From positions 1 through 14,377 of the IMG/VR virus record IMGVR_UViG_2675903352_000015: a stretch of DNA of 14,377 bases. The stretch is one strand, 5' to 3'. How positions within the stretch are numbered: position 1 is the stretch's first letter; every line of letters begins with the position of its first letter. Positions 751 through 14,377 of this stretch are shown here, in pieces. Position numbers and translations under genes: made by a program. The stretch is from a virus. Lineage: Duplodnaviria > Heunggongvirae > Uroviricota > Caudoviricetes. The notes under the pieces were generated by a model. It made no database searches and had not been told where the DNA came from. It saw nothing but the letters and a program-made list of their open reading frames with translations.

Positions 751-751
751 G

Positions 752-1030
752 TTACCTCCAGATACGTTGCTGGAATGTGCGGGAAGGACGCGGTGGGCGC
801 TCGGAGTAAGGGAGCCTTACAGAGATTATCCAGTGCAGGCGATCCAGACTGAGATCTTTCTGAACCTCATAGCCACGTCTGCGGTAGCTCTGAATTAGCC
901 ATTCAGCCTGTTCTTCTGTGCATGGAGGGTGCTGATACCAGCGAGTTTTAAATGCGTGCAAACGCCGCCCGTGCCTGCTGGCAAAGACGGCTGAATTATC
1001 AGAATTGTGTAACTTGGTATCGTGCGCCAT
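752..1030 (-). CDS. hypothetical small protein (92 aa from ATG 1030; ORF track extends it to a TTG at 1084)
   Basis: Open frame 752..1084 on minus strand; first ATG at 1030..1028; stop abuts the GGAGG/GTG start of the downstream edge gene, suggesting an operon. No family recognised. Confidence 0.35.
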   Translation of the reverse strand: MAHDTKLHNSDNSAVFASRHGRRLHAFKTRWYQHPPCTEEQAEWLIQSYRRRGYEVQKDLSLDRLHWIISVRLPYSERPPRPSRTFQQRIWR

Positions 1031-1098
1031 CGGTTGTCTCTGCTGGCGCAGCAGGTGCCAGTTGTTCAGGCTGGCGTGCGGCAATATTGTCTCTGATT

Positions 1099-1148
1099 TC
1101 TGTTGTCGTCAACAGACAGCGTGCTATCATCGAATAGTGTTCTATACT
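1099..1148 (+). promoter_or_regulatory. putative parDE promoter with palindromic operator
   Basis: Palindrome CTGTTG-tcgt-CAACAG at 1100..1115; candidate -10 hexamers TATCAT 1125..1130 and TATACT 1143..1148 upstream of the ParD start at 1166. ParD antitoxins typically autoregulate through such palindromes. Confidence 0.4.
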
Positions 1149-1165
1149 ACTCTGTGAGGTTTACC

Positions 1166-1423
1166 ATGCGTACAACCCAACAATTCAGCATTACATTAAC
1201 TAACGAGATGGCTGACATGGTGCGCGCCCGTGTGGCTTCCGGTGCCTATGCTTCAGAAAGTGAGGTCATTCGTGAAGGGCTTCGCGCACTGAATGAGCGC
1301 GATAAAGCAATCGAAGAGTGGTTAACGCATTCAGTCGCCCCCTCTCTTGATTCTATCCGCGAAAATCCAAGCAACGGACGCTCCATTTCACAGGTTCGCG
1401 CCGCGATTCGATCCGGAAAGTAA
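1166..1423 (+). CDS. parD: ParD-family antitoxin (ribbon-helix-helix)
   Basis: 85-aa product from ATG 1166 (GAGG 7 nt upstream); sequence ...MADMVRARVASGAYASESEVIREGLRALNERDKAIEEWL is typical of RHH ParD antitoxins; immediately followed by a ParE-like gene. The ORF-track start at 1103 is an unlikely N-terminal extension. Confidence 0.8.
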   Translation: MRTTQQFSITLTNEMADMVRARVASGAYASESEVIREGLRALNERDKAIEEWLTHSVAPSLDSIRENPSNGRSISQVRAAIRSGK

Positions 1424-1428
1424 TCTGC

Positions 1429-1740
1429 ATGACATATGAAGTCATCATTACTCCTGAGGCCGAACAACAAATAATCAACATGCACAGATATATAACTGAG
1501 AAAGCAGGGAACGTCATTGCTGACAATTATGCCAATGCACTTCTTGATTATCTTGATGGGTTTTCTACATTCCCGCATCGGGGCAATAAACGCGATGATA
1601 TTCGCCAGGGGATGCGGGTAACTCATTTCCGCCACAGAACGATTATTGCTTTTGCCGTTGATGACAATAAAGTTTTTATCGCAGGCGTATACCACGGTGG
1701 GCAAATCTATGAAACCGATTTTTTATCCAGTGCACCGTAA
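1429..1740 (+). CDS. parE: ParE/RelE-family toxin
   Basis: 103 aa; starts 5 nt after the parD stop; C-terminal part (THFRHRTIIAFAVDDNKVFIAGVYHGGQ) matches the ParE/RelE fold pattern; canonical antitoxin-then-toxin order. Confidence 0.8.
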   Translation: MTYEVIITPEAEQQIINMHRYITEKAGNVIADNYANALLDYLDGFSTFPHRGNKRDDIRQGMRVTHFRHRTIIAFAVDDNKVFIAGVYHGGQIYETDFLSSAP

Positions 1741-1780
1741 AACCCCCATCCTTCAGGGCGTGGCGGATATCAAACTTTGT

Positions 1781-2863
1781 TCATTTTCTCTGGCTGATCT
1801 TTACCGGATAACCATCCCGAAGATCAATTAAGTGCTCCGGTTCAGAAGCAAACCATGCATAAGATCCCCACGCCAATTCTGGTATTGCCTTTTTAAAAGG
1901 CAGAGCACTTCTGTCAATAAATGCCGTAAGGAATGCAAGATTTTTCTCGCTGAACCCAGCGTCAATAGCCAAATGAGTGAGAGTAACTTTTCGTTCCCTG
2001 TTTATAGGCCCATCTGTCGCAACTACCTCAGTGAAAACTACAAGCATATCCGAACCCGTTCGGTCCTCTCCCAAATCAATCAAAATAATATCTGGAAGTG
2101 CTTTTGAGGCATCAATATTCAGCCCCAATGCTTTTGCCAATACATCATCCTGAGCAACAACTTTATTCCCAGATTCAGACAACCAGAGCACAGTTGGATT
2201 CTTAAGAAAATTAGGAGCAAAAACTTCGATGACGGCCTTAGCTATTGTACTTGACGGGCCCGGAGCTAAAGTTCTCTTCTCTCCATTTGGGAAAGTGACG
2301 ACTACGGCATCAGCAGCAATCACTGCCCCTGATTTCAATAAACGCAATCTAGCAAGAGCGGCTTTGTTCAAATGATTTTCCTGCCAGGAACTTATTGCAC
2401 TCAGCAGCGAATCTCCTTCAAGCCCAGCATCAAAGAGTGCTGCAAAAGAGCGATTCAAACTGTAACGAGGATGAGAGGATGTGGTGGGTATACCTTTACG
2501 CTCAACAATTGCATTGCAAGGTATTAGGCCATTTTTTATAGTTTCATCACGTATTGGCTCACGCGTATTTTCCGCATACCATGCATCAGCAGGCCTTATC
2601 TTTTGTTTAGAGAAAGTCATCTTTACCCAACTTTCTCTGGACGCATCATCAGTAAGAGCAGCCTGTGAATCTCCCATACTTACAACCTGGCTGGGCCTTA
2701 TCCATCGCCCCAGCCCCTCAACCGCACCAGCATAAAACATGACAAAAATTGTTTTTGCAGCTATTTCCCGAATTAAATATCCACGATTCTCAGTCCCTTC
2801 AGGGAAAATTAATGGTAATCTTTCCCGGATAACATTCAATGGGGGAACAACAGGCAGATTCAT
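1781..2863 (-). CDS. putative type II restriction endonuclease (resembles BsuBI/PstI family, from memory)
   Basis: 360-aa ORF directly downstream of the methyltransferase on the same strand, with ATGA start/stop overlap at 2860..2863; AT-rich composition; size and context match REases paired with Eco57I/PstI-type methyltransferases. Family assignment is from recollection only. Confidence 0.6.
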   Translation of the reverse strand: MNLPVVPPLNVIRERLPLIFPEGTENRGYLIREIAAKTIFVMFYAGAVEGLGRWIRPSQVVSMGDSQAALTDDASRESWVKMTFSKQKIRPADAWYAENTREPIRDETIKNGLIPCNAIVERKGIPTTSSHPRYSLNRSFAALFDAGLEGDSLLSAISSWQENHLNKAALARLRLLKSGAVIAADAVVVTFPNGEKRTLAPGPSSTIAKAVIEVFAPNFLKNPTVLWLSESGNKVVAQDDVLAKALGLNIDASKALPDIILIDLGEDRTGSDMLVVFTEVVATDGPINRERKVTLTHLAIDAGFSEKNLAFLTAFIDRSALPFKKAIPELAWGSYAWFASEPEHLIDLRDGYPVKISQRK

Positions 2864-4692
2864 GCAATCATCACTCCATAGAAACCAGCGATAGTTCTCT
2901 CAATAATCCGTCTGTGGACGCCGGCATCAATTAACGATTGAATCTCCATCACCTGCTCCAGAGAAGGCAACGGGATTGAATTCAATTCATAGGCCGAAAC
3001 AGCAACACTTCCGCTTATACACCTGAACGCCCGATCGACAACATGCGAATTAAGTAGCATATCAATAACATCAGGGCGAACCGCAGAGAACAATCCGTTT
3101 GAATACACAATATTAATATGGTTTTCAACTACTACGCCACCAGTTTCATCTATAAATCCCTGAGGTAAAATCGCAGCTAAAATCCTTCTGTCCTGCTCCT
3201 TCGATGTTGTCCGCTGAACAAGCACACATTCAGATTTTGTCACAAGGAAACCCTGTTGTGGGGTTATATCGATATAGGGAACATGATTTTTTCTGTCTGC
3301 GCTAAAACGGAAACCAGCTGAAGTTATTGATTCCGCCCAGACTAATGGATAGCTATTTTTTCCTTTCGTCGTACGCAACTGCGACTTAAATCGATTCCAG
3401 ACTAACTGACCTGTAGAGACTGAGTATCCCAGATCAGCTAAACGCGTAGACATCTGTTTTAATACATTAAGAAAACAAGCATCATCTTTAACTCGTGGCA
3501 AAAGCCACGTTGCTCCACCTTTTTCTATATCAACATTACCTATTTTCTCAATTTTTGCTTTGTTCAACCCCTTAGGGACAAGTGAGGATACCTGGGCCCG
3601 AACTTTATGTTCTCCCGCCTTGAATGCTGTCAACATTGTTTCCTGGAGAACATCGTCAAAGACCCCATCCCTGTCAGCGACGAAATCAAGGGCATACGGA
3701 GTAGTTTTTTCGGTCAAAAGGGTTCGCAGCGCGGTGAAATACTGCCCACCAAGAAAAGAAGTTGGCGTAAGAAATGCAATAACTCCTGTTTTCTCTTTAA
3801 CCATGCGAACAGCTAAGTCGGTGAACAATCCATATAGATTTGCATGACCAAATAACGAACGAGAATATTTTTCTCTCGTTTTAATATCGAGAGTGACACG
3901 TCCGTAAGGCGGATTCCCTACCACAAGATCATAACCAGAAATTTTATCTTGCTGAAGCGCATCAGCAACAATAATTGTATCTTCAGGCAATCTACGTTTT
4001 ACCTTTACACATAGTGGCATTAGTACAGATTCGAGCAATACCAAACTCATCCAAGCCGCAAATGGATCGATTTCTATCCCCTTTAAACGACGACTGATTC
4101 TCCTCAACATCCATTCAGGGGAAGACCCCTTGTCTTTTTTTAACATTCGAATGGCTACTGGTGCCAAAAATGCACCGCCACCACACGCAGGATCAATAAC
4201 CGATGCATGAGAAAAATCAACACCAGACTTTTCAGCCAGGTCCAAGAGACGCGCTACCAAAGGTGGGGGGGTATAGTAAGCCCCCAATTCCGAACGGTAA
4301 GCGGATGGCAGCATTACCGTATAAATTGACCCAATCAGATATCCAGCGTCCTCCGCCGGAAATTGAGCAATAAGCTCACCTGTTCGTTCAGCGAGCTCGC
4401 GTGCATCACATGGAATGTCTTCTATGTAAACAGTGTGCGGTACTGCCCTCATTTTAATGCTGCTTTTTTGCTTTTTTGCAAGGGTATCCCAATATGCAGC
4501 TACGATGCTGAAGCAGTATGAGCGGGCATGCATCAACCTTGACTGCCCGGTTTTGTAATTGCCCGCATAACCTTTGGCCATGGCTTTACAAGTTTGATAT
4601 CTTTCCAGATTAGAAAACTCATTATCTGTAAAAAAATCAAAATGTTGCACATTCATAATGTAAAATCCTAATGTATCAAACATGCGGGCCAT
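2860..4692 (-). CDS. gamma-class N6-adenine DNA methyltransferase (Eco57I/PstI-like modification subunit)
   Basis: 610 aa; motif X GAYYTPP, motif I DPACGGGAFL (SAM binding), motif IV NPPYGRV in gamma-class order. Start choice is uncertain (ATG 4692 with weak SD; internal ATG at MNVQHF has an AGGA upstream). Confidence 0.85.
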   Translation of the reverse strand: MARMFDTLGFYIMNVQHFDFFTDNEFSNLERYQTCKAMAKGYAGNYKTGQSRLMHARSYCFSIVAAYWDTLAKKQKSSIKMRAVPHTVYIEDIPCDARELAERTGELIAQFPAEDAGYLIGSIYTVMLPSAYRSELGAYYTPPPLVARLLDLAEKSGVDFSHASVIDPACGGGAFLAPVAIRMLKKDKGSSPEWMLRRISRRLKGIEIDPFAAWMSLVLLESVLMPLCVKVKRRLPEDTIIVADALQQDKISGYDLVVGNPPYGRVTLDIKTREKYSRSLFGHANLYGLFTDLAVRMVKEKTGVIAFLTPTSFLGGQYFTALRTLLTEKTTPYALDFVADRDGVFDDVLQETMLTAFKAGEHKVRAQVSSLVPKGLNKAKIEKIGNVDIEKGGATWLLPRVKDDACFLNVLKQMSTRLADLGYSVSTGQLVWNRFKSQLRTTKGKNSYPLVWAESITSAGFRFSADRKNHVPYIDITPQQGFLVTKSECVLVQRTTSKEQDRRILAAILPQGFIDETGGVVVENHINIVYSNGLFSAVRPDVIDMLLNSHVVDRAFRCISGSVAVSAYELNSIPLPSLEQVMEIQSLIDAGVHRRIIERTIAGFYGVMIA

Positions 4693-4751
4693 AACATCTC
4701 ATGGTGGCGCATAGCAAACTGGCCCGAAGAATATCACGCACCAAGTCGATC

Positions 4752-4767
4752 TCATAACCCGTTATGA
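4752..4767. promoter_or_regulatory. 16-bp palindrome TCATAACCCGTTATGA upstream of the restriction-modification operon
   Basis: Perfect inverted repeat CATAAC-cc-GTTATG (4753..4766, extendable by one base each side), about 60-75 bp upstream of the methyltransferase start in a 214-bp AT-rich intergenic region; position fits an operator. Confidence 0.3.
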
Positions 4768-4906
4768 CAATAAATCTTTGTAGCTGAACTCACTTGGTGA
4801 TTTGTCAATCATTCCTGGCCTCCAGTTCGTCCTGAATCTCTTTATCGAGTTCACCGTATTTGTTAGTCCTCATCACTCACGACTTGACTTCCAGAAATAA
4901 CCTTGA

Positions 4907-5263
4907 TTATTCGGGGCTATATTTTGTCACCCTGCGTATCCGCGCTTTCGCATTACGCTCAATCTGGATTAGCTTTTCTATATTTTTTCGCCTTTCCCGC
5001 TCCTCCTGGCGCAAGAGCCTTACATCATCTGCCAGTCTGGTTTCTCTTTTCGCCACAGAGAGCATCCAGTCAAATGGCTCCACAACTGCACCGCAGATTT
5101 TACAGCGGACCTGACGCTCTTTTTCGTCAACCCGGACAGAAGCGTGATGGCAATATGGTCTTTCCGATGGCTCATAAAGAAAATTAACCTGATTACGAGG
5201 GTTATCCTCTTTTACCGGAAATAAAACAATATTGCTTAACTCATCTTCTGGTTTTATTTCCAT
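4907..5263 (-). CDS. hypothetical protein with putative zinc ribbon (C-H-H ... C-x2-C) and basic C-terminus
   Basis: 118 aa from ATG 5263..5261, preceded by AAGGAGAGGAGC on the minus strand. The ORF-track start (GTG 5320) directly abuts the upstream stop and lacks an SD. Motif YCHHASVRVDEKERQVRCKICG. No family recognised. Confidence 0.5.
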   Translation of the reverse strand: MEIKPEDELSNIVLFPVKEDNPRNQVNFLYEPSERPYCHHASVRVDEKERQVRCKICGAVVEPFDWMLSVAKRETRLADDVRLLRQEERERRKNIEKLIQIERNAKARIRRVTKYSPE

Positions 5264-5320
5264 GCTCCTCTCCTTTGATGCGAATGCCAGCGGTAATTGA
5301 AGCCTGATAGCTAATTTCAC

Positions 5321-5743
5321 TCACAGTACCGCCTCCTGAAAATCACCCTGATAGAAAGCCAGTACACGCTGCATAACTTCACTCTTCCGGCACTCGCGAC
5401 AGATTATGTTCTGATGTCTGTCGTAGCGGCGTATTTCTCCGTCTGGTAATGACCAGATAAGGTCCGGATCAACCGCAGATGGTTTCTTCAGCTTTGCCCT
5501 TGAGAGCTTTTTACGGGCATTTTGCCAGTCCTTACGCGCCTGTTCAGACGGGAATAACCCGTAACCAGAGTTGCATACATCGCCACTGGCAACCAGCTCT
5601 CTGGCCAGAACGCTCATCAGATATCTTGTTGCCCCAGTTTTAGCTTCCAGTTGTCGTAACGTCTCGCGCCCACTCTGGCGTACGAGTTCAACAACCTGCC
5701 CTTTAATTTTTTCCCGCTCTTCTTGTGTAAAAACTTTTGCCAC
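5321..5743 (-). CDS. hypothetical protein (possible winged-helix/HTH) in the position where a helicase loader would be expected
   Basis: 140 aa; GTG start 5743..5741 with AGGAGGG upstream; lies 40 bp downstream of the O-like gene; no Walker A motif, so not DnaC-like. Confidence 0.5.
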   Translation of the reverse strand: MAKVFTQEEREKIKGQVVELVRQSGRETLRQLEAKTGATRYLMSVLARELVASGDVCNSGYGLFPSEQARKDWQNARKKLSRAKLKKPSAVDPDLIWSLPDGEIRRYDRHQNIICRECRKSEVMQRVLAFYQGDFQEAVL

Positions 5744-5783
5744 AAGCCCTCCTGAAAATTACCTCATGACCAGAAATTAACAC

Positions 5784-6749
5784 TTACCCCCTGAAGCCCG
5801 GCGGAATTTCGTTATCCGGTTCAGAAATGTGATTCACGCAACGCTGTACAGGCGAACGCCCCAGACGAATAACCAGCTCATCCCATTTTTCGCGAAGCTT
5901 TGACGGGCTCATGACGTTTTTTACCCAGAATGGATCCCGCTGTACCCGACCAAACATTTCGCAAATTTGTCTGTGAGTTCTGCCATCCAGCATCCGCATT
6001 GTGCGCACATCATTGGCCCATGCAGTCCAGTTTGGTTCTTTCGGTCGCATGATTTCGCCATCATCGCTGGCAGCCTGCTCGTAAAGACTCACGATTCGCC
6101 CCCAGATCCACTGCGCACACGCCAAATCTTCCTGGCTGCCCCACTGGCGTTTTTTCGCACTGAACACAACAGCGTCAGGGTGTCGGGTTAAAAAATCCTG
6201 TTCAGCCGTCTGCCTGTCCGGTTGCGAAGATTCCGGACGAGAAGTGTTTTTATTCTCTGTAGTAATCTCTGTTGTATTCTCTGTAAGATCATCGGGCCAT
6301 TTTGACCCGATGACATTGGGTCGTTTTGAACCAATGGAGCGTGTCATTTTGGCTCCTTCCATCGTGTCATTTTGACCTGATGGAGCGGCGCATTTTGACA
6401 TGATGGATTCGCTCACTTTGCCACCATCTAAAAGCTCGCTCTCGTAATTAATCGTGTAAAAATTAGTCATATCACGCTTTGATTTGTTGAGCTTTTCACA
6501 ACGCAAAAGCCCCAGCGTTTTCAGACTTGCAAATGCGCGTTTTAACGTTGACTCTGACCAGAAAGGGAACTGTTCCAGCCATTGTTCTGTTGTGTTATAA
6601 ATCCAGCGAACACCATCACATTCCATGCCGGAACCGGTATCTCTCAACCAGTAATGCAGCTGCTGCAACACGATGGCTTCGTTCAGACCAATTTTCATCG
6701 CCAGCTGCGTGTTTATAACCAGCGGGCGTTCAGCAAAAAGGAGCTTCAT
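5784..6749 (-). CDS. phage replication initiation protein (lambda O / Rac YdaU-like replisome organiser)
   Basis: 321 aa; strong SD (GGGGGAGGGG) before ATG 6749; follows the Cro-like and YdaT-like genes in the rightward-operon position; an iteron array and AT-rich repeats lie inside the central linker of the gene, as in lambda O/ori. Confidence 0.65.
   Translation of the reverse strand: MKLLFAERPLVINTQLAMKIGLNEAIVLQQLHYWLRDTGSGMECDGVRWIYNTTEQWLEQFPFWSESTLKRAFASLKTLGLLRCEKLNKSKRDMTNFYTINYESELLDGGKVSESIMSKCAAPSGQNDTMEGAKMTRSIGSKRPNVIGSKWPDDLTENTTEITTENKNTSRPESSQPDRQTAEQDFLTRHPDAVVFSAKKRQWGSQEDLACAQWIWGRIVSLYEQAASDDGEIMRPKEPNWTAWANDVRTMRMLDGRTHRQICEMFGRVQRDPFWVKNVMSPSKLREKWDELVIRLGRSPVQRCVNHISEPDNEIPPGFRG
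6250..6430. repeat. putative replication origin: six 23-bp-spaced iterons plus three tandem 12-bp AT-rich repeats
   Basis: TTTTG cores at 6300, 6324, 6347, 6370, 6393 and (CTTTG) 6416, unit consensus about GTCATTTTGACCnGATGGAG; adjacent TATTCTCTGTAG-like 12-mers with TCTCTGT at 6254, 6266, 6278. Confidence 0.6.
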
Positions 6750-6770
6750 CCCCTCCCCCAGAACACGTTA

Positions 6771-7196
6771 TCAATGCGCCACCACGGCATTTCCCGCCGG
6801 ACCACCACGATTCATCTGATTGAAACCAGCAATTACCACCGCGACAAGTTCATCAGCGTCTCTCACCAGTCGTTCATGCGTATCCACCAGTTCCCGAAAA
6901 TAATCGGAACTGTGGCTGCGCATCCAGGCCACCAGCGGAGGTGGCATTGCCTTTTCGATCGCTGGTAACAAAGCCTGAATTTTTTTAACCGCATCAGGGG
7001 TGTCTTTCTCCACCCAGCGGAAAATTTTCTGAGTATTGCGAGCCAGGGCTTCCGGATGGCTGTCGTCATACAGTTCCGGGAATGTCATACCCAGCTCAAA
7101 ATAAGCCCGGGTTATTTCAGCTGCCGGAACTTTTTCACCGTCCGGACGCGCCCAGGCATTCATCGCCATGCGGATGTGTTCATGCTTGATTTTCAT
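6771..7196 (-). CDS. YdaT-like protein (Rac prophage family; role assignment from context)
   Basis: 141 aa; overlaps the end of the upstream Cro-like gene by 17 bp; SD GGGGA upstream; position and size match Rac ydaT. Confidence 0.5.
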   Translation of the reverse strand: MKIKHEHIRMAMNAWARPDGEKVPAAEITRAYFELGMTFPELYDDSHPEALARNTQKIFRWVEKDTPDAVKKIQALLPAIEKAMPPPLVAWMRSHSSDYFRELVDTHERLVRDADELVAVVIAGFNQMNRGGPAGNAVVAH

Positions 7197-7452
7197 GAAT
7201 CATCCCCGGTGTATTTGGTGTGTTAACTTTACATCCAACAGGTAAACCGTCGGTTGGGTTAGGATAAATATCAGGGCGAATTTCATGCGGGGTAACTTCC
7301 CACTTCATTAGCTGGCATAACGGAATTACCTGCTTTGGGGGAACACCAAAGCTAAACCATTGCCAAACAGTCTGTTGAGCAACTCCCATATAACGACCTA
7401 TTTCAGCTTGAGTGTGTTTCTGCCTAATTTTTTCGCGAGTGCTATCTAGCAT
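7180..7452 (-). CDS. Cro/YdaS-like HTH transcriptional regulator
   Basis: 90 aa; strong SD (GAGGAGGG) before ATG 7452; HTH segment TQAEIGRYMGVAQQTVWQW; divergent from the repressor gene across an operator-bearing intergenic region. Confidence 0.65.
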   Translation of the reverse strand: MLDSTREKIRQKHTQAEIGRYMGVAQQTVWQWFSFGVPPKQVIPLCQLMKWEVTPHEIRPDIYPNPTDGLPVGCKVNTPNTPGMIHENQA

Positions 7453-7481
7453 TTTGCCCTCCTCTAAAAAACTATAAGCAA

Positions 7482-7523
7482 ATCCTACAATAAAAAACTG
7501 TATGCGATCAACAGTTTTTTATT
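7482..7523 (-). promoter_or_regulatory. pR-like promoter with operator palindrome O1 (AAAAACTGT-N9-ACAGTTTTT)
   Basis: Perfect 13-bp inverted repeat AATAAAAAACTGT (7489..7501) / ACAGTTTTTTATT (7511..7523); on the minus strand TTGATC (-35, 7511..7506), 18-bp spacer, TAGGAT (-10, 7487..7482) upstream of the Cro-like gene. Confidence 0.5.
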
Positions 7524-7561
7524 GTGATGCTTTTAACAGTATTTGCCTGTAAAATTGGAAA

Positions 7562-7963
7562 ATGATGAACGCCCTAGAAGTATCTATGTACAGAATCAGC
7601 AAGCTTCTTCAGGAAACTGGATGGAGCCAGGCTGAGCTTGCCCGTAGAATTGGTGTGACACAGCAAACTGTTCAACAATGGGTCAGCGGTAAGGCAACAC
7701 CTAAAGCCTCAAGTTTGGATAAACTGGTTGAGGTTACAGGGCATCCATTGCATTGGTTTTTATTGCCTCCTGAAGAGAGGGAGCAAATTTTCACCCCTGA
7801 TACGATGAAAATTGGTCCTCGCCAACGCGAACTGCTCCAAGCTTTTAGTGCGTTTCCTGAGGAAGACCAGGAAAAAATGCTTCAAGAAATCAAAGACAAG
7901 AAAAAATCAATGGAAGAAACCATTGCCCGATGGTTAGCGGCACAAAAAAGCCGCCTGGCGTGA
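7562..7963 (+). CDS. CI/RacR-like prophage repressor (XRE-family HTH, no S24 peptidase domain)
   Basis: 133 aa; HTH SQAELARRIGVTQQTVQQWVSGKATP; sits between the two operator-bearing divergent promoters in the same arrangement as lambda cI; no C-terminal Ser/Lys autocleavage motif recognised. Confidence 0.7.
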   Translation: MMNALEVSMYRISKLLQETGWSQAELARRIGVTQQTVQQWVSGKATPKASSLDKLVEVTGHPLHWFLLPPEEREQIFTPDTMKIGPRQRELLQAFSAFPEEDQEKMLQEIKDKKKSMEETIARWLAAQKSRLA

Positions 7964-7990
7964 CCACTGAACAAGAAGAGGAGTTATGCC

Positions 7991-8068
7991 ATGAGTACAG
8001 CCCTTTCTCCGATAGTTTCAGAATTCGAAACAACCGAACAAGAAGACAGTTATAACTTCAAGCATTGA
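7991..8068 (+). CDS. possible small ORF (25 aa, acidic) downstream of the repressor
   Basis: ATG 7991 preceded by GAGGAG with a 7-nt spacer; MSTALSPIVSEFETTEQEDSYNFKH; lies between the repressor stop and the terminator. Could be non-coding. Confidence 0.25.
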   Translation: MSTALSPIVSEFETTEQEDSYNFKH

Positions 8069-8133
8069 AATTGCAAATATTGTGCATGCCCGACGACAAT
8101 TTACCTTCTCTATCTAAGCAGAACAATTTTCAT

Positions 8134-8159
8134 ACTCCCTCATTCGAGGGAGTTTTTTT
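8134..8159 (+). terminator. rho-independent terminator ending the repressor transcript
   Basis: 8-bp stem ACTCCCTC / GAGGGAGT with ATTC loop followed by TTTTTT (8154..8159); U-run present only for the plus-strand transcript. Confidence 0.65.
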
Positions 8160-8173
8160 GCCTAAACCAACAA

Positions 8174-8213
8174 TTAAAAACTGTTGACACAAAACAGTTT
8201 TTAATTGTAGATT
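8174..8213 (+). promoter_or_regulatory. pL-like promoter with operator palindrome O2
   Basis: TTGACA (8184..8189), 18-bp spacer, TAGATT (8208..8213); perfect 12-bp inverted repeat TTAAAAACTGTT (8174..8185) / AACAGTTTTTAA (8193..8204) overlapping the -35; same CTGT-N9-ACAG core as O1. Confidence 0.55.
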
Positions 8214-8224
8214 ATTTTCACCAA

Positions 8225-8237
8225 CCCCCCCCCCCCC
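8225..8237. repeat. homopolymeric C13 tract
   Basis: Thirteen consecutive C at 8225..8237, starting about 12 bp downstream of the pL-like -10 hexamer, in the transcript start/5' leader region. Confidence 0.9.
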
Positions 8238-8389
8238 ACAGAACGCCGGGCAATACTTCGAGTTACCCGGCAGTGGTCAGGGGTTAAGTAGCCAGCCCGA
8301 GGCGTAAGAACATGACGGCAGGGTTCAACTTTAACTATGCAGCAGGTTTTTGTTCCGCTACCCCGGCGTTAAGGGGAAATGAGGTCAAC

Positions 8390-8545
8390 ATGGATACTAT
8401 CGATCTTGGCAACAACGAATCTCTGGTGTGCGGCGTGTTCCCAAACCAGGACGGCACATTCACCGCGATGACGTATACCAAAAGCAAAATGTTTAAAACC
8501 GAAAATGGTGCCCGTCGCTGGCTGGAAAGAAACTCAGGTGAGTGA
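8390..8545 (+). CDS. small prophage protein (51 aa; resembles Rac/Qin YdaF/YdfA-type proteins from memory)
   Basis: ATG 8390 with GAGG 5 nt upstream; an in-frame upstream ATG at 8312 (GAGG 9 nt upstream) would give 77 aa, so the start is ambiguous. Confidence 0.5.
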   Translation: MDTIDLGNNESLVCGVFPNQDGTFTAMTYTKSKMFKTENGARRWLERNSGE

Positions 8546-8546
8546 T

Positions 8547-8675
8547 ATGGATTTCGACACAATCATGGAAAAGGCTTACGAAGAATACTTCGAAGGCCTT
8601 GCCGAAGGCGAAGAGGCTCTCAGCTTCAGTGAGTTTAAACAGGCGCTTTCCAGCCCGGCAAAATCTAACGGCTGA
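8547..8675 (+). CDS. small acidic protein (42 aa)
   Basis: ATG 8547 one nt after the preceding stop (coupled); MDFDTIMEKAYEEYFEGLAEGEEALSFSEFKQALSSPAKSNG. The ORF-track alternative (GTG 8542, other frame, Arg-rich low complexity) looks less protein-like. Confidence 0.4.
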   Translation: MDFDTIMEKAYEEYFEGLAEGEEALSFSEFKQALSSPAKSNG

Positions 8676-8704
8676 TAAGCGAAGCAGCACCGCGAGGAAT
8701 CAGT

Positions 8705-8923
8705 ATGCAGAAACGAGAACCCGTCATCATCGCGCCAGACTATACCGATGATGAACTTTATGAGTGGATGCACCAGAAAATTAAGGCAGCGCAGGACCTG
8801 AAATGGGCCAATGAAGCCATGGCTAAGCAGGCCGAAAATCTGTCTGCTCTGGAAAAAGATATTACCAATCTGGAAAAAGCAGCGGCATTAAGCATTGCCA
8901 GAATGATTACATACCCACGTTAA
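8705..8923 (+). CDS. hypothetical helical protein (72 aa)
   Basis: ATG 8705 with GAGGA 6 nt upstream; heptad-like, probably coiled-coil sequence; no family recognised. Confidence 0.5.
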   Translation: MQKREPVIIAPDYTDDELYEWMHQKIKAAQDLKWANEAMAKQAENLSALEKDITNLEKAAALSIARMITYPR

Positions 8924-8945
8924 TAGCTAACCAACGAGGCTAATA

Positions 8946-9353
8946 ATGGAATTTAAAGATTTACCAAAAGAAATCCAGACAATTGCTGCAACGACTCTCG
9001 GTGATAGTCTGGTGAAAATTGACCCGGCATACACCAAAAAAGAAACCATCGATAATATGGTTCGTAATGTGCGCAATGCTTTTTCTGGGCTATATGGTTC
9101 TGATAATCAAAAGCAGGAAAGCGATGTTAATAAACGGGTAATTTCTGTTTGCGTGAATGGCCATGTTCTTTCATCAATCAAAACAGAAACGGCGACAGTC
9201 TTCGATTGCCTTTGCATTGTACAGAGCCTTGTTGATGCCCTGTTTCGTTCAGTGAATTTAGAAAATGATGCAAATCTGCGAGGGCGCACAATAGCACATC
9301 CATATGCACATACTTTAGGCTCTGTGGATATCAAAGATCCCACAAATCTTTAA
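8946..9353 (+). CDS. hypothetical protein (135 aa) in an AT-rich accessory insert
   Basis: ATG 8946 with GAGG 8 nt upstream; visibly AT-richer than flanking prophage genes; no transmembrane segment or known motif recognised. Confidence 0.55.
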   Translation: MEFKDLPKEIQTIAATTLGDSLVKIDPAYTKKETIDNMVRNVRNAFSGLYGSDNQKQESDVNKRVISVCVNGHVLSSIKTETATVFDCLCIVQSLVDALFRSVNLENDANLRGRTIAHPYAHTLGSVDIKDPTNL

Positions 9354-9564
9354 TGAAATAGTTAACGCGAATTGTACTTGCTCTTTCAGTTGCTTTCAGA
9401 ATACGCGTTGAAACTGCTGGCGGTAATTTGGTATTCCATTTATTAAAATCATGCCCGGGAAAGTACTCTTCGAAAATACTTTTAACTGCAGACTCGCCTA
9501 TTGAAATGCTGCTTACCATGCGATTTTGATAAAGGCATTTAGCAATAAGAGTTGATTTTAACAT
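9331..9564 (-). CDS. hypothetical protein (77 aa), convergent with and overlapping the 3' end of the 135-aa gene
   Basis: ATG 9564..9562 preceded by AGGAGG (spacer GTGA) on the minus strand; AT-rich; 3' end overlaps the convergent gene by 23 bp. Confidence 0.45.
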   Translation of the reverse strand: MLKSTLIAKCLYQNRMVSSISIGESAVKSIFEEYFPGHDFNKWNTKLPPAVSTRILKATERASTIRVNYFIKDLWDL

Positions 9565-9957
9565 TCACCCTCCTGAGGGTTGGTAATTAAGGAGTTCTCC
9601 ACGGGTGAAATGGAGTGCGTGCGCCGGACACGGGTGAACATCCGGCACTGACAGTTTACTGAAAGGATATTTCTCTGAAAAGTCAGAGCATAACGCGAAA
9701 GCGCACGGCGAGGTTGCTGGTTCATAGATAGCCTGTCGTTAAATTTTCGTCGACCGTGCGCTTCCGGTTGTGGCACTCCGCGAAATGGCGCGGCGGTAAG
9801 TATGGCGGGGTTATTCCTTCCCCCGTTGAGGACACCGGGTTGTCAGGTTGACCATACGCTTAAGTGACAACCCCGCTGCAACGCCCTCTGTTATCAATTT
9901 TCTGTGACGTTTGGCGGCATCTGTTTGCCCATGAACTGATGTCCGCCCTTTTTAAAG

Positions 9958-10105
9958 TGAATTTTGTGATGCGGTGAATGCGGCTAAGCGCACGCGGAAC
10001 AGTTAAAGCTAAAAACAGTGTTATGGGTGGATTCTCTGTATCCGGCGTTAATTGTTAACTGGTTAACGTCACCTGGAGGCACCAGGCACCGCATCACAAA
10101 ATTCA
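9958..10105. repeat. 19-bp perfect inverted repeat pair flanking a 110-bp segment
   Basis: TGAATTTTGTGATGCGGTG at 9958..9976 and its exact reverse complement at 10087..10105; right arm ends 4 nt before the GAGGA SD of the ORF starting at 10123; internal segment contains GTTAAC-tg-GTTAAC. Confidence 0.85.
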
Positions 10106-10122
10106 TTGTTGAGGACGCGATA

Positions 10123-10311
10123 ATGGAAACGTTATTACCAAACGTTAATACGTCTGAAGGTTGTTTTGAAATTGGTGTCACTATCAGCAATCAGATATTT
10201 ACTGAAGATGCCATTAATAAAAGAAAACACGAACAGGAACTGCTAAATAAAATATGCATTGTTTCGATGCTGGCCCGTTTACGTCTGATGCAAACAGGAT
10301 GCAGGCAATGA
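10123..10311 (+). CDS. hypothetical small protein (62 aa) in the kil-region position
   Basis: ATG 10123 with GAGGA 7 nt upstream; the ORF-track GTG 10018 start would read through the inverted-repeat arm and is less likely. Confidence 0.4.
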   Translation: METLLPNVNTSEGCFEIGVTISNQIFTEDAINKRKHEQELLNKICIVSMLARLRLMQTGCRQ

Positions 10312-10406
10312 ATACGGCATTTGTACTCGTTCTGACTGTTTTTTTGTTTCTGGTGAACCGATTGATCTTGTTATTGACATACATGACTCAATGGAAGAAT
10401 GCATGA
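10308..10406 (+). CDS. possible hydrophobic micro-protein (32 aa, single predicted TM helix)
   Basis: ATG 10308 overlaps the upstream TGA (ATGA coupling); MNTAFVLVLTVFLFLVNRLILLLTYMTQWKNA. Below the length cut-off of the ORF track. Confidence 0.3.
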   Translation: MNTAFVLVLTVFLFLVNRLILLLTYMTQWKNA

Positions 10407-10498
10407 CTGCCGCGGCAGAGCAAAAAATTCCCGGGAACTGTTATCCTGTCGACAAAATTATTCGCATGAACAATAACGAAATCCCGGCAGGCCTTTAA
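10403..10498 (+). CDS. possible micro-ORF (31 aa; 35 aa if started at ATG 10391)
   Basis: ATG 10403 overlaps the preceding TGA (second consecutive ATGA coupling); MTAAAEQKIPGNCYPVDKIIRMNNNEIPAGL. Confidence 0.25.
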   Translation: MTAAAEQKIPGNCYPVDKIIRMNNNEIPAGL

Positions 10499-10590
10499 AA
10501 CAGCCCCATAATAAATATCCGGTTTTATTTTTATATGTCAGCAATGGCAGGGATTTGTCCACCCTTAAATCTGTAATGAGGTAAAACAAA

Positions 10591-13071
10591 ATGAGTAAAG
10601 TCTTTATTTGCGCCGCCATTCCGGACGAACAGGCAACAGCAGAAGGCGCCAAACCTGTGGCCACTGCCATTGAAGCAGGCGACGAACGCCGGGCAAGAGC
10701 CAAATTTAGCTGGTTATTTCTGGAACAATACCCGGAAGCTCAGGACTGTGCTTATAAATTTCTTGTCTGCGAGGATAAACCCGGCATGGCCCGCCCTGCT
10801 CTCGATTCCTGGGATTCCGAATATATGCAGGAAAACCGCTGGAATGAGGAGTCGGCTTCCTTTGTTCCGGTCGACCCTGAACCGGACGCAGAAATTGTTA
10901 ACTTTAATCAGTTATCTGACGACAAGCGGGCTGCTGTCCTTGTCAGGTTCGGTACACATGAAAACATCACCGTGGATATGGTCATCAATGCAAGCGGGCT
11001 TCTCGGCGATGACGAGATGACGACTTTTGATGGACACCTCGCTGAAGCAATTATCCGGACCAGAGAAATTAACGCCATGTATCCAGAGCGTCAGATTGAG
11101 TACATCAACGATGCCAGACGTGATTTAAAACCAACAGCCAAATGGCCCGACGTTCAGGCGTATTTTCTCGAACGTAAAAAACGCATGGAAAAGGAGCGCA
11201 AAGAAGGTGGCGCATATAATTCCGTCGTCGATCTTGCCCGCGCCAGAGTCAACCGGCAAGGCACTGAAAACTCTGCAGGAAAAACTGACTCCGTAACTGC
11301 TGTCATTCGTCGCGAATACAGGCAGACATGGAAAACACTGGATGAAGAACTGGCCTACGCTTTCTGGCCTGGTGATATTGATGCCGGAAACATTGACGGC
11401 AGCATCCATCGCTGGGCAAAAAATGAAGTTATCGACAAAGATCGCGAAGACTGGAAGCGTATTTCCGCATCAATGCGCAAACAACCTGATGCCGTTCGCT
11501 ACGACCGTCAGACTATTTTTGGCCTTGTCCGTGAGCGTCCGATCGACATTCACAAAGATCCCGTGGCGCTGAACAAATACATCACTGAATACCTGGCGAC
11601 AAAGGGCGTGTTTGAGGATGAAGAAACAGACCAGAGCACTGCTGATATTCTCCAGCCGTCAGCAGCACAAACTGATGCAGTGGAAACTGAAGTATCTGAT
11701 ACCCAAAAAAATGAAAGCGCGCTGGAAACTGAACCATCTGTAGAGCGTGAGGGGCCGTTCTACTTCCTCTTCACCGATAAGGATGGCGAAAAATATGGTC
11801 GTGCAAACAAACTTTCTGGTCTGAATAAGGCGCTGGCTGCAGGGGCTACTGAAATCACGAAAGAAGAATATTTTGCCCGTAAAAACGGCACGTACTCAGG
11901 TTCACAACAAAATACTGGTGCATCTGACACGACCGCACAACCAGAGCCGGTAAAAGTTACCGCTGACGAAGTAAACAAAATTATGCAGGCAGCCAATATC
12001 AGCCAGCCTGACGCCGATAAGTTGCTTGCTGCCTCTCGCGGAGAATTTGTTGCAGGGATTAGCGACCCGAATGATCCGAAATGGGTGAAGGGGATTGAAA
12101 CCCGCGATTCTGTAAACCAGAACCAGCAAGAATCGGAACAGAACGACCAGAAAGCGGAACAAAACAGTCAAAATGCGTTACAAAACGAGCCAGAAACGAA
12201 ACAACCTGAGGCAGTAGCGCAACAGGAACCGGAAAAAGTCTGCACCGCCTGCGGTCAGAGCGGTGGCGGCAACTGCCCTGATTGTGGCGCGGTGATGGGC
12301 GACGCAACATACCAGGAAACATTCGATGAAGAGAATCAGGTTGAAGTTCAGGAAAATGATCCGGAGGAAATGGAAGGCGCTGAACATCCACACAAGGAGA
12401 ATGCTGGCAGCGCTCAGGACCACGCCAGCGATAATGAAACTGGTGAGACGGCAGATCCCTTAATTGTGGTGAACGGTCATCACGTTATCACATCCACCAG
12501 CAGAGTGTGGTACCACCTGATGATCGACCTTGAAACAATGGGAACCAACACCAATGCGCCCATCGTGGTTATTGGTGCGGTTTTCTTCGACCCACAAACA
12601 GGGGAAATCGGGCCAGTATTTTATATCGTTATCAGTCTGACTGACGCAATGAATACAGGGGCTGCTCCTGACGGTGGAACCATCAAATGGTGGCTGAAGC
12701 AGTCCAGTGAAGCCAGAGCTGCCATTTTAACAGACCAGGTAAAACTGAAGGATGCCCTTTCGCGGTTTCGGGAGTTCATCAACGAATACTCAGATGAAAA
12801 ATTCGTTCAGGTATGGGGTAATGGTGCAACTTTCGATAACGCAATTTTGCGCACCTCATACGAACGTCTGGACATCCCCTGCCCGTGGCGCTACCACAAC
12901 GATCGCGATGTACGCACAATCGTTGAGCTGGGAAAAACAATCGACTTTGATGCTAGAACCGTTATTCCATTCGAAGGCGTTCGCCACAATGCACTGGATG
13001 ACGCCCGTCACCAGGCAAAATACGTTTCAGCAATCTGGCAAAAACTGATCCCGAATCCGGTTGATTTTTAA
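10591..13071 (+). CDS. RecE-like prophage exonuclease: RecE-type N-terminal/central region and Cys4 zinc ribbon fused to a DnaQ-like DEDDh 3'-5' exonuclease domain
   Basis: 826 aa; GAGGT 8 nt upstream. Segment DKLLAASRGEFVAGISDPNDPKWVKGI...CTACGQSGGGNCPDCGAVMGDATYQETFDEE closely matches Rac RecE as I recall it. C-terminus has DEDDh motifs: MIDLETMG (D646, E648), WGNGATFDNAIL (D749), HNALDDARH (H799, D803/D804). Confidence 0.8.
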   Translation: MSKVFICAAIPDEQATAEGAKPVATAIEAGDERRARAKFSWLFLEQYPEAQDCAYKFLVCEDKPGMARPALDSWDSEYMQENRWNEESASFVPVDPEPDAEIVNFNQLSDDKRAAVLVRFGTHENITVDMVINASGLLGDDEMTTFDGHLAEAIIRTREINAMYPERQIEYINDARRDLKPTAKWPDVQAYFLERKKRMEKERKEGGAYNSVVDLARARVNRQGTENSAGKTDSVTAVIRREYRQTWKTLDEELAYAFWPGDIDAGNIDGSIHRWAKNEVIDKDREDWKRISASMRKQPDAVRYDRQTIFGLVRERPIDIHKDPVALNKYITEYLATKGVFEDEETDQSTADILQPSAAQTDAVETEVSDTQKNESALETEPSVEREGPFYFLFTDKDGEKYGRANKLSGLNKALAAGATEITKEEYFARKNGTYSGSQQNTGASDTTAQPEPVKVTADEVNKIMQAANISQPDADKLLAASRGEFVAGISDPNDPKWVKGIETRDSVNQNQQESEQNDQKAEQNSQNALQNEPETKQPEAVAQQEPEKVCTACGQSGGGNCPDCGAVMGDATYQETFDEENQVEVQENDPEEMEGAEHPHKENAGSAQDHASDNETGETADPLIVVNGHHVITSTSRVWYHLMIDLETMGTNTNAPIVVIGAVFFDPQTGEIGPVFYIVISLTDAMNTGAAPDGGTIKWWLKQSSEARAAILTDQVKLKDALSRFREFINEYSDEKFVQVWGNGATFDNAILRTSYERLDIPCPWRYHNDRDVRTIVELGKTIDFDARTVIPFEGVRHNALDDARHQAKYVSAIWQKLIPNPVDF

Positions 13072-13137
13072 TGTTCAACCCTGATCGCCGTCTCCGAATT
13101 ATATTGGCGGCGGTCATGCTGTAAGGCACGTGACCAC

Positions 13138-13389
13138 ATGTACGAATTAACTCTATCGCCAGCAGAGATTCAAGAGATCACGAAATACGAGCGATACACA
13201 AAACAGCAACACCAGTTAAGGCTGCACGGTATCCCATTTGTAATCGGTCCTAAAAACGAACCAATAGTTCTTCGCAGGGATATTCCACACGGACTGACTA
13301 CGATGCCAAAAGCACCTGAACTAGTTTCCGCTGAACCCGATTTTGAGGCGCTGAACAATGGGAAGACCAAGAAAAAACAAAAAAGATAA
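13138..13389 (+). CDS. xis: excisionase (lambda Xis-like)
   Basis: 83 aa; N-terminus MYELTL and lysine-rich C-terminus NNGKTKKKQKR resemble lambda Xis (MYLTL...NGKKAKS) from memory; overlaps the integrase start by 32 bp as in lambda. Confidence 0.55.
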   Translation: MYELTLSPAEIQEITKYERYTKQQHQLRLHGIPFVIGPKNEPIVLRRDIPHGLTTMPKAPELVSAEPDFEALNNGKTKKKQKR

Positions 13390-14377
13390 TGCACTACCAC
13401 CGCGTGTTAGATCGAATGGTTACAGTTACGTGTGGAAACCCGAAGGAAGCACAAGAACTATAGGGCTCGGAAGAGTACGGGAAACCAGCGTAGCTAAAGT
13501 CTGGCAAAATTATGAACTGGAAAAAGCAAAACTCCACAACATAATGACCGTCGCTAAATTATGGCACATGTTTATGGACTCCCCTGCATTTACAGAACTG
13601 GCACCCCGAACCCAAAAAGATTATCGACAACATCAGAGGGCGTTGCTGGCGGTATTCGGTAAAGTGCTTGCTGATAATGTAAAAATTGAGCAAGTAAGAA
13701 TTTTCATGGATAAGCGGGGACTTGAGAGCAAGACCCAGGCAAACCATGAGCTGGCAAGCCTGAGTCGCGTATACGGATGGGGATATGAGCGTGGGTATGT
13801 GAAAAATAATCCATGCAAAGGCGTCAGAAAATTCACGCTTAAAGCCCGCACTGTTTACATAACCGATGAACAGTATGCGGCGATATACGCGGAAGCAATT
13901 CCACAGTTACGCATTGCAATGGAGATTTCCTATCTTTGTGCGGCAAGGCTCGGTGATGTTCTCGAGCTGAAATGGCAGGATATTATGGATAAAGGGATCT
14001 ACATTGAGCAAAACAAAACAGGCACCAAACAAATCAAGGAATGGTCTCCGCGATTACGTACGGCGATCCAGTTAGCCCGAAATGTATCTTCCGGCATATG
14101 CGGGTATGTGATCAGCACAACCAAAGGCGGGAAAGTCATCGCTAAAACGCTGAACAACTGGTGGAATCAGGCTAAACGCGCAGCCGAGCAAAAAGCAGGC
14201 GTTCCGTTCGGATGTAATTTTCATGACATAAAAGCCAAAGGGATTTCAGATTATGAAGGCAGCAGCCGCGACAAACAAATTTTCAGTGGGCATAAAACAG
14301 AAAACCAGGTGTTGATTTATGATCGCAAAACAAAAATCACCCCAACACTGGATTTGCCGCTTGTGGTCAGTAAGTAG
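13358..14377 (+). CDS. int: tyrosine integrase, lambda Int family
   Basis: 339 aa; N-terminal MGRPRK...LPP...NGY like lambda Int; box I Arg (AARLGDVLELKW); box II FHDIK...SGHK...LIYDRK with candidate catalytic Tyr; stop codon TAG is the last three bases of the window. Confidence 0.9.
   Translation: MGRPRKNKKDNALPPRVRSNGYSYVWKPEGSTRTIGLGRVRETSVAKVWQNYELEKAKLHNIMTVAKLWHMFMDSPAFTELAPRTQKDYRQHQRALLAVFGKVLADNVKIEQVRIFMDKRGLESKTQANHELASLSRVYGWGYERGYVKNNPCKGVRKFTLKARTVYITDEQYAAIYAEAIPQLRIAMEISYLCAARLGDVLELKWQDIMDKGIYIEQNKTGTKQIKEWSPRLRTAIQLARNVSSGICGYVISTTKGGKVIAKTLNNWWNQAKRAAEQKAGVPFGCNFHDIKAKGISDYEGSSRDKQIFSGHKTENQVLIYDRKTKITPTLDLPLVVSK

Follow-up and report, generated by a model that had tools for sequence, protein, structure and literature searches.

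Convergent 3′-overlapping gene pairs as swappable cassettes in the early-left operon of Qin/Rac-type prophages: candidate lysogen-expressed exclusion modules

INTRODUCTION

Why would a lambdoid prophage carry two small genes that run into each other tail to tail inside its early-left operon, and what would their products do? This question is raised by a 14,377-nucleotide (nt) stretch of DNA from a virus of the Caudoviricetes (IMG/VR record IMGVR_UViG_2675903352_000015, positions 1–14,377; hereafter the window), in which two open reading frames (ORFs) converge: ORF-A (8946–9353, plus strand, 135 amino acids (aa), ATG start; WP_000394520, phrog_1363) reads in the direction of the operon, and ORF-B (9331–9564, minus strand, 77 aa, ATG start, predicted all-helical; WP_000920491, phrog_10348) reads against it, so that the two coding regions share 23 base pairs (bp) at their 3′ ends (9331–9353, both strands). 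An earlier note on this locus, made from the letters of the window, had read the AT-rich pair as a candidate exclusion or defence module expressed in the lysogen. Aligned with its relatives, the segment 8943–9576 emerges as one allele among those of an exchangeable two-gene cassette, which sits in the early-left (dicB/pL) operon of Qin/Rac-type prophages, under repressor control.

RESULTS

Purifying selection and predicted structure of ORF-A and ORF-B

Both ORFs are preceded by a Shine-Dalgarno sequence, GAGG for ORF-A (8936–8939, plus strand, 6 nt 5′ of the ATG) and AGGAGG for ORF-B (complement of 9569–9574, minus strand, 4 nt 5′ of the ATG); the lengths, strands, ribosome-binding sites and 23-bp overlap given in the earlier note were all reproduced. 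Homologs of ORF-B in Klebsiella, Serratia, Dickeya, Xenorhabdus, Morganella, Yersinia, Salmonella and Erwinia are exactly 77 aa long (78 aa in Yersinia frederiksenii), share 55–72% identity across genera and keep an invariant N-terminal MLKSTLIAKCL and C-terminal FIKDLW. The ratio of nonsynonymous to synonymous differences per site (pN/pS) across genera was 0.35 for ORF-B and 0.50 for the C-terminal domain of ORF-A that pairs with it (the partner domain, described below), at a pS of ~0.7, i.e. near saturation, whereas four of the five off-frames gave 0.9–1.4 and one antisense frame gave 0.46. The fixed length of ORF-B, its identity across genera and the pN/pS values indicate that these are not chance reading frames, and on these alignments ORF-A and ORF-B are real genes under purifying selection.

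The AlphaFold2 model of ORF-B is a compact bundle of five helices with a predicted local distance difference test score (pLDDT) of 97.3, of a soluble type and not that of a membrane protein (grand average of hydropathy, GRAVY, −0.13). The model of ORF-A has a pLDDT of 71 and consists of a helical hairpin (residues 1–50), a disordered linker (52–62) and a β-hairpin followed by two helices (65–128). Scans of Pfam, NCBIfam and PADLOC returned nothing usable for ORF-A, ORF-B, an alignment of the partner domain, the proteins of alternative cassettes or longer members of the ORF-B family; in PADLOC-DB 2.0, neither the two ORFs nor the alternative cassette proteins had a match below E ~0.01. The predicted fold of ORF-B matched no relative among solved structures, and literature searches by the RefSeq accessions of the proteins turned up nothing. 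PHROG matches of both proteins were confined to families of unknown function, in line with the remark in the earlier note that neither belongs to a recognised family; the profile and structure searches proposed there gave no Pfam, NCBIfam, PADLOC or solved-structure match to either protein.

Co-inheritance of ORF-B with the C-terminal half of ORF-A

ORF-A is a fusion of two modules, only the C-terminal one of which belongs to the conserved pair. The N-terminal module of ~57 aa (8946–9116, plus strand, beginning MEFKDLPKEIQ) is a predicted helical hairpin (helices 8–23 and 32–50) that heads sense-strand genes with at least four different C-terminal parts (e.g. P0043, P0044, P0046 and P0049), and PHROG cross-matches of ORF-A are confined to residues 1–60. 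The partner domain (residues 58–135; 9117–9353, plus strand) comprises the β-hairpin and two helices and carries the motifs VNG, DY and LExEANxxGKTIxH. Its homologs stand alone as genes of 75–80 aa in other prophages; in Serratia and Klebsiella, for instance, a 77–79-aa gene converges with ORF-B, overlaps it by exactly 23 bp and encodes a product that aligns with the C-terminal half of ORF-A. The partner family comprises at least 136 clusters in Enterobacterales, and its identity across genera is 29–48%, against the 55–72% of ORF-B.

Every intact enterobacterial ORF-B locus that was fetched carried a convergent, overlapping partner domain (38 distinct sequence combinations), with an overlap of 23 nt, or 26 nt in Yersinia-like loci. 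Viewed from the partner side, 41 of 51 distinct loci, on viral contigs, had a convergent overlapping gene of the ORF-B family, the overlap being 23, 26, 33, 51 or 53 nt. A scan of genome contigs added little, with four loci only. The pair was found in prophages of Escherichia coli, Serratia, Klebsiella and Erwinia and in loci whose protein sequences assign them to prophages of the Proteus, Xenorhabdus and Yersinia types, with saturated synonymous sites among them (pS ~0.7). Erwinia pyrifoliae shows this convergent arrangement too, the gene caller having extended ORF-B upstream. These comparisons identify ORF-B and the ~75-aa partner domain as a conserved, co-inherited module. The convergent gene pair described in the earlier note therefore stands, but it is more than a pair of neighbours, and one of its members is a fusion.

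The wider ORF-B family forms 157 clusters at 50% identity and has members in an integrative element and in ordinary chromosomal contexts. A conserved neighbour was looked for among the distant relatives and none was found; they occur alone or in unrelated contexts, without the partner, which marks ORF-B as an autonomous small domain. Partner genes without ORF-B also exist (~20% of partner loci), and the occurrence of each member without the other is the pattern expected of an effector and its antagonist. Within E. coli, ORF-B of the window and that of locus L063 differ at a pS of 0.045, whereas the partner domains differ at a pS of 0.35 and share 76% amino-acid identity; a near-identical ORF-B beside a divergent partner points to a recombination break-point at or near the 3′ overlap.

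In other loci (L083, L089, L091 and L100), the partner domain is joined either to a YdfC-like N-terminus or to a C4 zinc finger of the ClpX type (PF06689). The YdfC-like fusion is that of L089 and L091, in Yersinia-like prophages; L083, L089 and L091 are viral contigs, and the label Yersinia-like comes from their ORF-B sequences. In Citrobacter L100, the zinc-finger fusion is found without ORF-B, and a convergent 147-aa gene (phrog_5286) lies ~670 bp downstream instead.

A polymorphic slot between ydfA/ydfC and the DicF leader

The cassette was delimited by pairwise alignment with phage Tritos, which lacks the segment 8943–9576 (both strands) and is otherwise ~96% identical in the flanks. Its GC content is 0.39 (0.36 in ORF-B), compared with 0.468 for the window, 0.48 for ydfA–ydfC and 0.54 for the DicF leader; no 634-bp segment of the window is richer in AT, and only 0.1% of the segments of that size equal it, so that the two ORFs are indeed richer in AT than their surroundings, as the earlier note had it. 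Deviant base composition, a trait of the autonomous accessory prophage genes called morons, is likewise seen in this cassette, which is AT-rich relative to the flanking phage genes. Among 5426 complete E. coli genomes, 656 (~12%) carry the cassette, including O157:H7 and O111:H8, and 4339 contain at least part of the flanks formed by ydfC and the DicF leader.

Judged by the alleles that were compared, the E. coli site between ydfA/ydfC and the DicF leader is a polymorphic slot, which is either empty or filled by one of at least four cassettes. Each cassette found there consists of one sense gene and one small antisense gene. In the allele of L101 and L102 (3001–3775), a 201-aa sense gene agrees fully with ORF-A up to and including ‘...GSVD’, beyond which it has another tail, of 70 aa, and it overlaps by 23 bp a 63-aa antisense gene (phrog_2605) that is unrelated to ORF-B and reuses the ORF-B Shine-Dalgarno sequence AGGAGG. 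Identity between L101 and the window stops after the ‘...GSVD’ codons and returns exactly at the shared ribosome-binding sequence TTCACCCTCCTGAGGG, which defines an inner swap unit made up of the antisense gene and the 3′ tail of the sense gene (9330–9564 in the window, both strands). A third allele (L103, 2501–3349) has a 212-aa gene (phrog_2151) abutting a 69-aa antisense gene (phrog_4274), and a fourth (L104, 2501–3263) has a 179-aa gene overlapping by 20 bp an 80-aa antisense gene (phrog_10133), whose product has CPxC and CPxH motifs and looks like a zinc ribbon. The 69-aa and 80-aa proteins both start with MPNKP. None of the alternative cassette proteins matched Pfam or PADLOC, and their PHROG families are of unknown function.

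All sense genes of the slot have the N-terminal module in common, and all antisense genes are preceded by one common leader containing GTGCCGGAT...TCCGGCGCAC. The C-terminus of the sense gene and the small antisense gene switch together from allele to allele, as is expected for cognate pairs at an accessory locus with fast turnover.

The empty state of the slot looks like a deletion and not like the ancestral condition, because the cassette-less phages retain the leader upstream of ORF-B, which resembles the upstream element found in other genera. Tritos, for example, keeps the sequence 5′ of ORF-B as part of its ‘DicF leader’ (L002, 3243–3560), and the presumed end-points of the deletion in cassette-less phages fall inside the two ribosome-binding regions. 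Of the ‘horizontally acquired insert’ of the earlier note, the exchangeability of the segment is retained, whereas the site is a polymorphic slot and the empty phages look like deletions. The classical K-12-type dicBF operon presumably has an empty slot. The dicBF papers that we found concern only the cassette-less K-12 operon (PMC6832061, PMC10448788).

The early-left operon and the N/sieB position

The window belongs to an E. coli lambdoid prophage of the Qin/Rac type; a 1.2-kb portion used as a query is 99.8% identical to the prophage adjoining yccA in E. coli strain CAU16175. The gene order is dicA, ydfA, ydfB, ydfC, the cassette, a long leader, DicF, dicB and ydfD, followed by integration and exonuclease genes. 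The dicA-like repressor gene lies at 7562–7963 (plus strand) and a dicC/cro-like gene at 7180–7452 (minus strand). The 72-aa ydfC (8705–8923, plus strand; phrog_1744, RefSeq annotation of the 99.8% identical genome) is the operon gene just 5′ of the cassette, and downstream lie a variant of the DicF small RNA (9899–9948, plus strand; Rfam RF00039, 41.1 bits, E = 2e-7) and dicB (10123–10311, plus strand; RefSeq annotation of the near-identical genome and translation). In K-12, the dicBF operon has one promoter, which lies upstream of ydfA and is repressed by DicA, DicA and DicC having the roles of CI and Cro (PMC10448788). Since dicBF is transcribed from there, ORF-A and ORF-B lie inside a pL-like early operon, and the earlier placement of the pair within the pL operon holds for the DicA-repressed dicB (pL-like) operon of a Qin/Rac-type prophage, with ORF-B antisense to it.

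The position of the pair relative to pL is seen directly in a Klebsiella relative of the CI type (L007). Here the cI terminator is followed by operators identical to those of OR and, with them, a pL-like promoter (TTGACC-18-TATTAT); the genes downstream of pL begin with the partner and continue with the convergent ORF-B and recombination-type genes. In lambda, the pL genes start with N (35037–35438, minus strand); sieB (34482–35036, plus strand) converges with it and abuts its 3′ end, being itself antisense to pL. As this geometry is the same as that of partner and ORF-B in Klebsiella, ORF-B occupies by position the sieB slot and the partner the N slot. The earlier note had compared the region with that of sieB, and the comparison extends in this way to gene orientation.

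The region upstream of ORF-B

The boundary of the cassette lies 12 nt from the ORF-B ATG, indicating that the cassette brings no promoter of its own for this gene; what lies further upstream is a leader (9577–9700, minus strand) that alignments find in common with cassette-less phages. A standard promoter scan detected no minus-strand site upstream of ORF-B in the window. A relaxed search gave a sole promoter-like site, TTTTCA-17-TAAACT, which is weak (8/12) and located in the shared leader 88 nt before the ATG (−35, TTTTCA, complement of 9676–9681; −10, TAAACT, complement of 9653–9658). In other genera, the invariant columns upstream of ORF-B read TGnTAnnnT, ~35 nt before the ATG, which suggests an extended −10 promoter motif; in the window this motif has been lost, an 18-nt insertion and several substitutions having altered the region. 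A promoter of its own for ORF-B, as the earlier note had supposed, is plausible across the family and unproven for this window: the cassette supplies none, but there is the weak site in the shared leader and the extended −10 in other genera.

About 75 nt 5′ of ORF-B are conserved in L003, L007, L011, L083, L089, L098 and L112–L129, with a diverged counterpart at 9565–9660 (minus strand) of the window, where 9620–9650 resembles the conserved element by eye in the alignments; the Klebsiella and Serratia region equivalent to 9565–9760 of the minus strand carries TGGTATCTT. This element contains inverted repeats in a pseudoknot-like order, GCCTG...CAGGC being interleaved with CCAC...GTGG, and a further repeat that overlaps the Shine-Dalgarno site, TCTTGG...CCAAGA, co-varying with TCCTTGC...GCAAGGA. 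With RNAalifold, the element yielded no nested consensus structure. In an anchor-based count of the CCAC/GTGG stem, the 4-bp core was nearly invariant, and the adjoining position showed four Watson-Crick pair types but was mismatched in 12 of 31 sequences. The element may be a promoter, a structure in the 5′ untranslated region of ORF-B or a structure in the sense-strand pL transcript.

No terminator such as an autonomous moron would carry was found after ORF-B, which ends within the coding region of ORF-A; the closest minus-strand site, a weak one, is at 8900–8883. A 72-aa ORF with a GTG start (9558–9776, minus strand), which sits in the conserved DicF leader and has no family match, was rejected as spurious.

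Comparison with known prophage systems

Prophage accessory loci have been described as typically located antisense (PMC7067206), and several known systems share parts of the arrangement of ORF-B and its partner. Like sieB, ORF-B lies inside the pL operon near the immunity region, against pL and tail to tail with the first pL gene; the coding regions of N and sieB abut, while those of ORF-B and the partner overlap. SieB is a membrane protein, of 184 aa in lambda, whereas ORF-B has 77 aa and is predicted to be soluble and helical. Homology was rejected by profile comparison with hhalign, both for ORF-B and SieB (probability 0.5%) and for the partner and lambda N (0.1%), the partner being predicted to be folded. 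In P22, SieB contains its own means of self-escape, Esc, which the sas antisense RNA switches (PMC7067206, PMC12197685). The logic is the same as we propose for ORF-B and partner, but the P22 escape factor is an in-frame fragment of sieB, whereas the partner is a separate convergent gene.

In the Tai/Ati system of phi80, a defence gene lies antisense in a lytic operon and is constitutively expressed in the lysogen (He et al. 2024, PMC11364771); Ati, the product of a small adjacent operon gene, binds its cognate Tai as an antagonist in the lytic cycle, and transcription of the operon lowers the expression of Tai, which in the case of TaiEcA is a protein of 26 kDa (PMC11364771). The geometry of ORF-B and its partner is analogous, the roles of the two genes being as yet only proposed. 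The systems differ in that Tai/Ati belongs to the late Q-dependent operon, with divergent genes and a 5′ overlap, while ORF-B and partner belong to the early-left operon and converge with a 3′ overlap. Homology to phi80 TaiEcA (orf63) and AtiEcA (orf64) was also rejected (hhalign, 0.45% and 0.09%). In the pL operon of phi80, between N/tL1 and kil (L176, 5905–6170), there are two mutually antisense ORFs, PHI80_43 and PHI80_44, known from the annotation of the record alone and unrelated in sequence to ORF-B and partner.

Lambda OOP and cII are, like our pair, convergent units of a lambdoid early operon with overlapping 3′ ends, through which an antisense transcript can influence the sense mRNA (PMC7067206), although OOP is a short non-coding RNA and ORF-B encodes a conserved protein. 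With toxin-antitoxin systems, the pair shares the format of a small two-component module on a mobile element with one member more conserved and, as in type I, an antisense arrangement. It departs from them in that its genes are not arranged as a co-directional bicistron and match no toxin or antitoxin domain of Pfam or NCBIfam, that ORF-B does not have the character of a small hydrophobic peptide, and that the operon-sense member is under repression in the lysogen. DicB is a small prophage protein of the dicBF operon for which an anti-phage effect has been demonstrated (PMC6832061); small proteins that protect the host are thus encoded in this operon. Its gene runs in the operon direction under DicA repression, and its sequence is unrelated to those of ORF-B and ORF-A.

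Other features of the prophage

The DicF copy in the window is a variant whose 41.1 bits fall below the Rfam gathering score of 48, so that it goes unreported at the gathering threshold; it has a changed first stem-loop and one-base deletions in the 5′ single-stranded region and in the terminator stem. Between DicF and dicB, there is a sub-threshold match to STnc100 (9960–10100, plus strand; 38.7 bits against 47). The region 3′ of dicB contains a frameshifted ydfD, an exonuclease gene, an excisionase-like gene and an integrase gene; the ydfD (DUF1482) homolog lies at 10308–10498 (plus strand) and is frameshifted according to the annotation of the near-identical genome. Directly 3′ of the dicA-like repressor gene, the same RefSeq annotation places a remnant ‘antitoxin’ pseudogene (~8006–8071, plus strand), at a place where the related prophage L102 (1694–2172) has an intact PaaA2/ParE toxin-antitoxin pair. 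The prophage of the window also carries a type II restriction-modification system (1781–4692, minus strand) composed of a BsuBI/PstI-type endonuclease (1781–2863, 360 aa; PADLOC REase_II, 2.4e-129) and an N6-adenine methyltransferase (2860–4692, 610 aa; PADLOC MTase_II, 6.6e-300). Their genes share 4 nt and are rich in AT (GC 0.42–0.44). At the corresponding place, the CAU16175 prophage has hokD and small genes, and the restriction-modification system is not annotated there.

DISCUSSION

We tentatively favour, with less than even confidence, the reading that the lysogen makes ORF-B as an accessory or exclusion protein, which the partner and pL transcription between them turn off once the prophage enters lytic growth. 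As long as lysogeny lasts, the operon would be repressed and ORF-B would be made from a promoter of its own, its likeliest role being the exclusion of, or interference with, incoming (lambdoid) phages. Upon loss of the repressor, strong early transcription would run head-on through ORF-B and interfere with its transcription, and the overlapping 3′ ends would make an RNA duplex obligatory. The partner, as an immediate-early product, would neutralise ORF-B and spare the prophage's own lytic growth, by a logic like that of P22 sieB/esc-sas and phi80 Tai/Ati. Such an exclusion role fits best because ORF-B is the more conserved and autonomous member and is directed against a repressed operon, and because the partner would be the first product after derepression. 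In this reading, the expression timing of each gene, the mutual antagonism of the products and the exclusion phenotype are inferred.

A broader proposal, which we hold to be possible but doubtful, is that ORF-B/partner and the pairs that replace it make up a previously unrecognised polymorphic hot spot of defence and self-immunity at the N/sieB position of the early-left operon. The small antisense protein of each cassette would then be made in the lysogen and exclude other phages, and the cognate sense domain, first made after derepression, would switch it off together with head-on pL transcription.

Several observations speak against the exclusion role of ORF-B. A length of 77 aa would be very short for an exclusion factor that acts alone, and the GRAVY value of ORF-B is not that of a membrane protein. 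Neither protein had any match in Pfam, NCBIfam or PADLOC, and hhalign gave no homology to SieB, N, Tai or Ati. The near-identical ORF-B proteins of E. coli are paired with partner alleles that are only 76% identical, and divergence of the partner beside a constant ORF-B is unexpected for a tightly co-evolving protein interface. In addition, the extended −10 is lost in E. coli, where the 8/12 site that is left also occurs in the leader of cassette-less phages; with only this weak and distant site, ORF-B may be poorly or differently expressed in the window.

The polarity of the pair could also be reversed, ORF-A (the partner) being a harmful immediate-early host-takeover protein and the ORF-B protein and transcript serving in the lysogen as a safety catch against leaky expression of the early operon, in the manner of a toxin-antitoxin system. 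In the Klebsiella relative, no other gene separates the partner from pL, and the operon holds known toxic products, DicF and DicB (PMC10448788); the convergent overlap amounts to built-in antisense control, and YdaT-type and ParE/PaaA2 modules occur nearby in the same prophage family. We nevertheless consider this reversal unlikely: the ~20% of partner loci without ORF-B, such as the Citrobacter ClpX-zinc-finger fusion, would be toxins without an antidote, a dedicated antidote would not usually be the more conserved member, nor have relatives that occur outside phage contexts without the partner, and neither gene has a toxin or antitoxin Pfam domain. Alternatively, the pair may be mainly a regulatory device: convergent transcription from the ORF-B promoter would brake the early-left operon, and the ORF-B transcript would serve as an antisense RNA, much as OOP does for the 3′ end of cII, the proteins having separate roles. 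How much read-through reaches dicF, dicB and the recombination genes would be set in this way, or the choice between lysis and lysogeny influenced. RNase III processing already belongs to the biology of this operon (PMC10448788). Every intact pair keeps the 3′ overlap despite its varying length (23–53 nt) and the varying partner C-terminus, and unrelated cassettes keep both the sense/antisense layout and the same upstream leader. However, the ORF-B protein is constrained (pN/pS 0.35, fixed length, invariant terminal motifs) and confidently folded (pLDDT 97), which indicates that the protein product matters, and a device acting purely at the RNA level needs no co-inheritance of two proteins across genera; we regard it as distinctly unlikely.

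That the two are unrelated accessory genes in a recombination-prone slot, overlapping as a result of genome compaction, is in our view highly unlikely. In its favour are the high mosaicism of the slot, the free recombination of the ORF-A N-terminal module and the exchange of E. coli partner alleles against a near-constant ORF-B; yet the pair stays together, convergent and overlapping, across genera whose synonymous sites are saturated (pS ~0.7). Finally, the shortness of the two ORFs, their lack of a Pfam family and their annotation as ‘hypothetical protein’ only could suggest that one or both are chance reading frames in AT-rich DNA. The chance of this is negligible, given that the annotated frames are under purifying selection, as four of the five off-frames are not, and given conserved-length homologs in many genera, the confident ORF-B fold and the Shine-Dalgarno sites on both; selection, homologs and fold effectively refute it.

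On the sequence comparisons, ORF-B and its partner are best described as a new, unannotated family pair with an architecture of known type, and as a candidate for experimental testing. If the exclusion reading is true, they would add a new protein family pair to the few prophage defence/self-antidote systems that are wired to lysis-lysogeny by gene orientation, the known examples being sieB/esc and Tai/Ati. The convergent, 3′-overlapping genes would then provide a general lysogeny-coupled switch, present in ~12% of complete E. coli genomes including enterohaemorrhagic E. coli (EHEC) O157:H7, and the slot, with its at least four alternative pairs, could be mined in E. coli prophages including those of O157:H7. 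The cassette lies just 5′ of DicF and DicB, and antisense transcription from it could affect these cell-division and phage-resistance factors, whose regulation has so far been studied only in the cassette-less Qin prophage of K-12. Whatever its function, a convergent pair with overlapping 3′ ends that recurs across Enterobacterales offers a clean model for regulation by convergent transcription.

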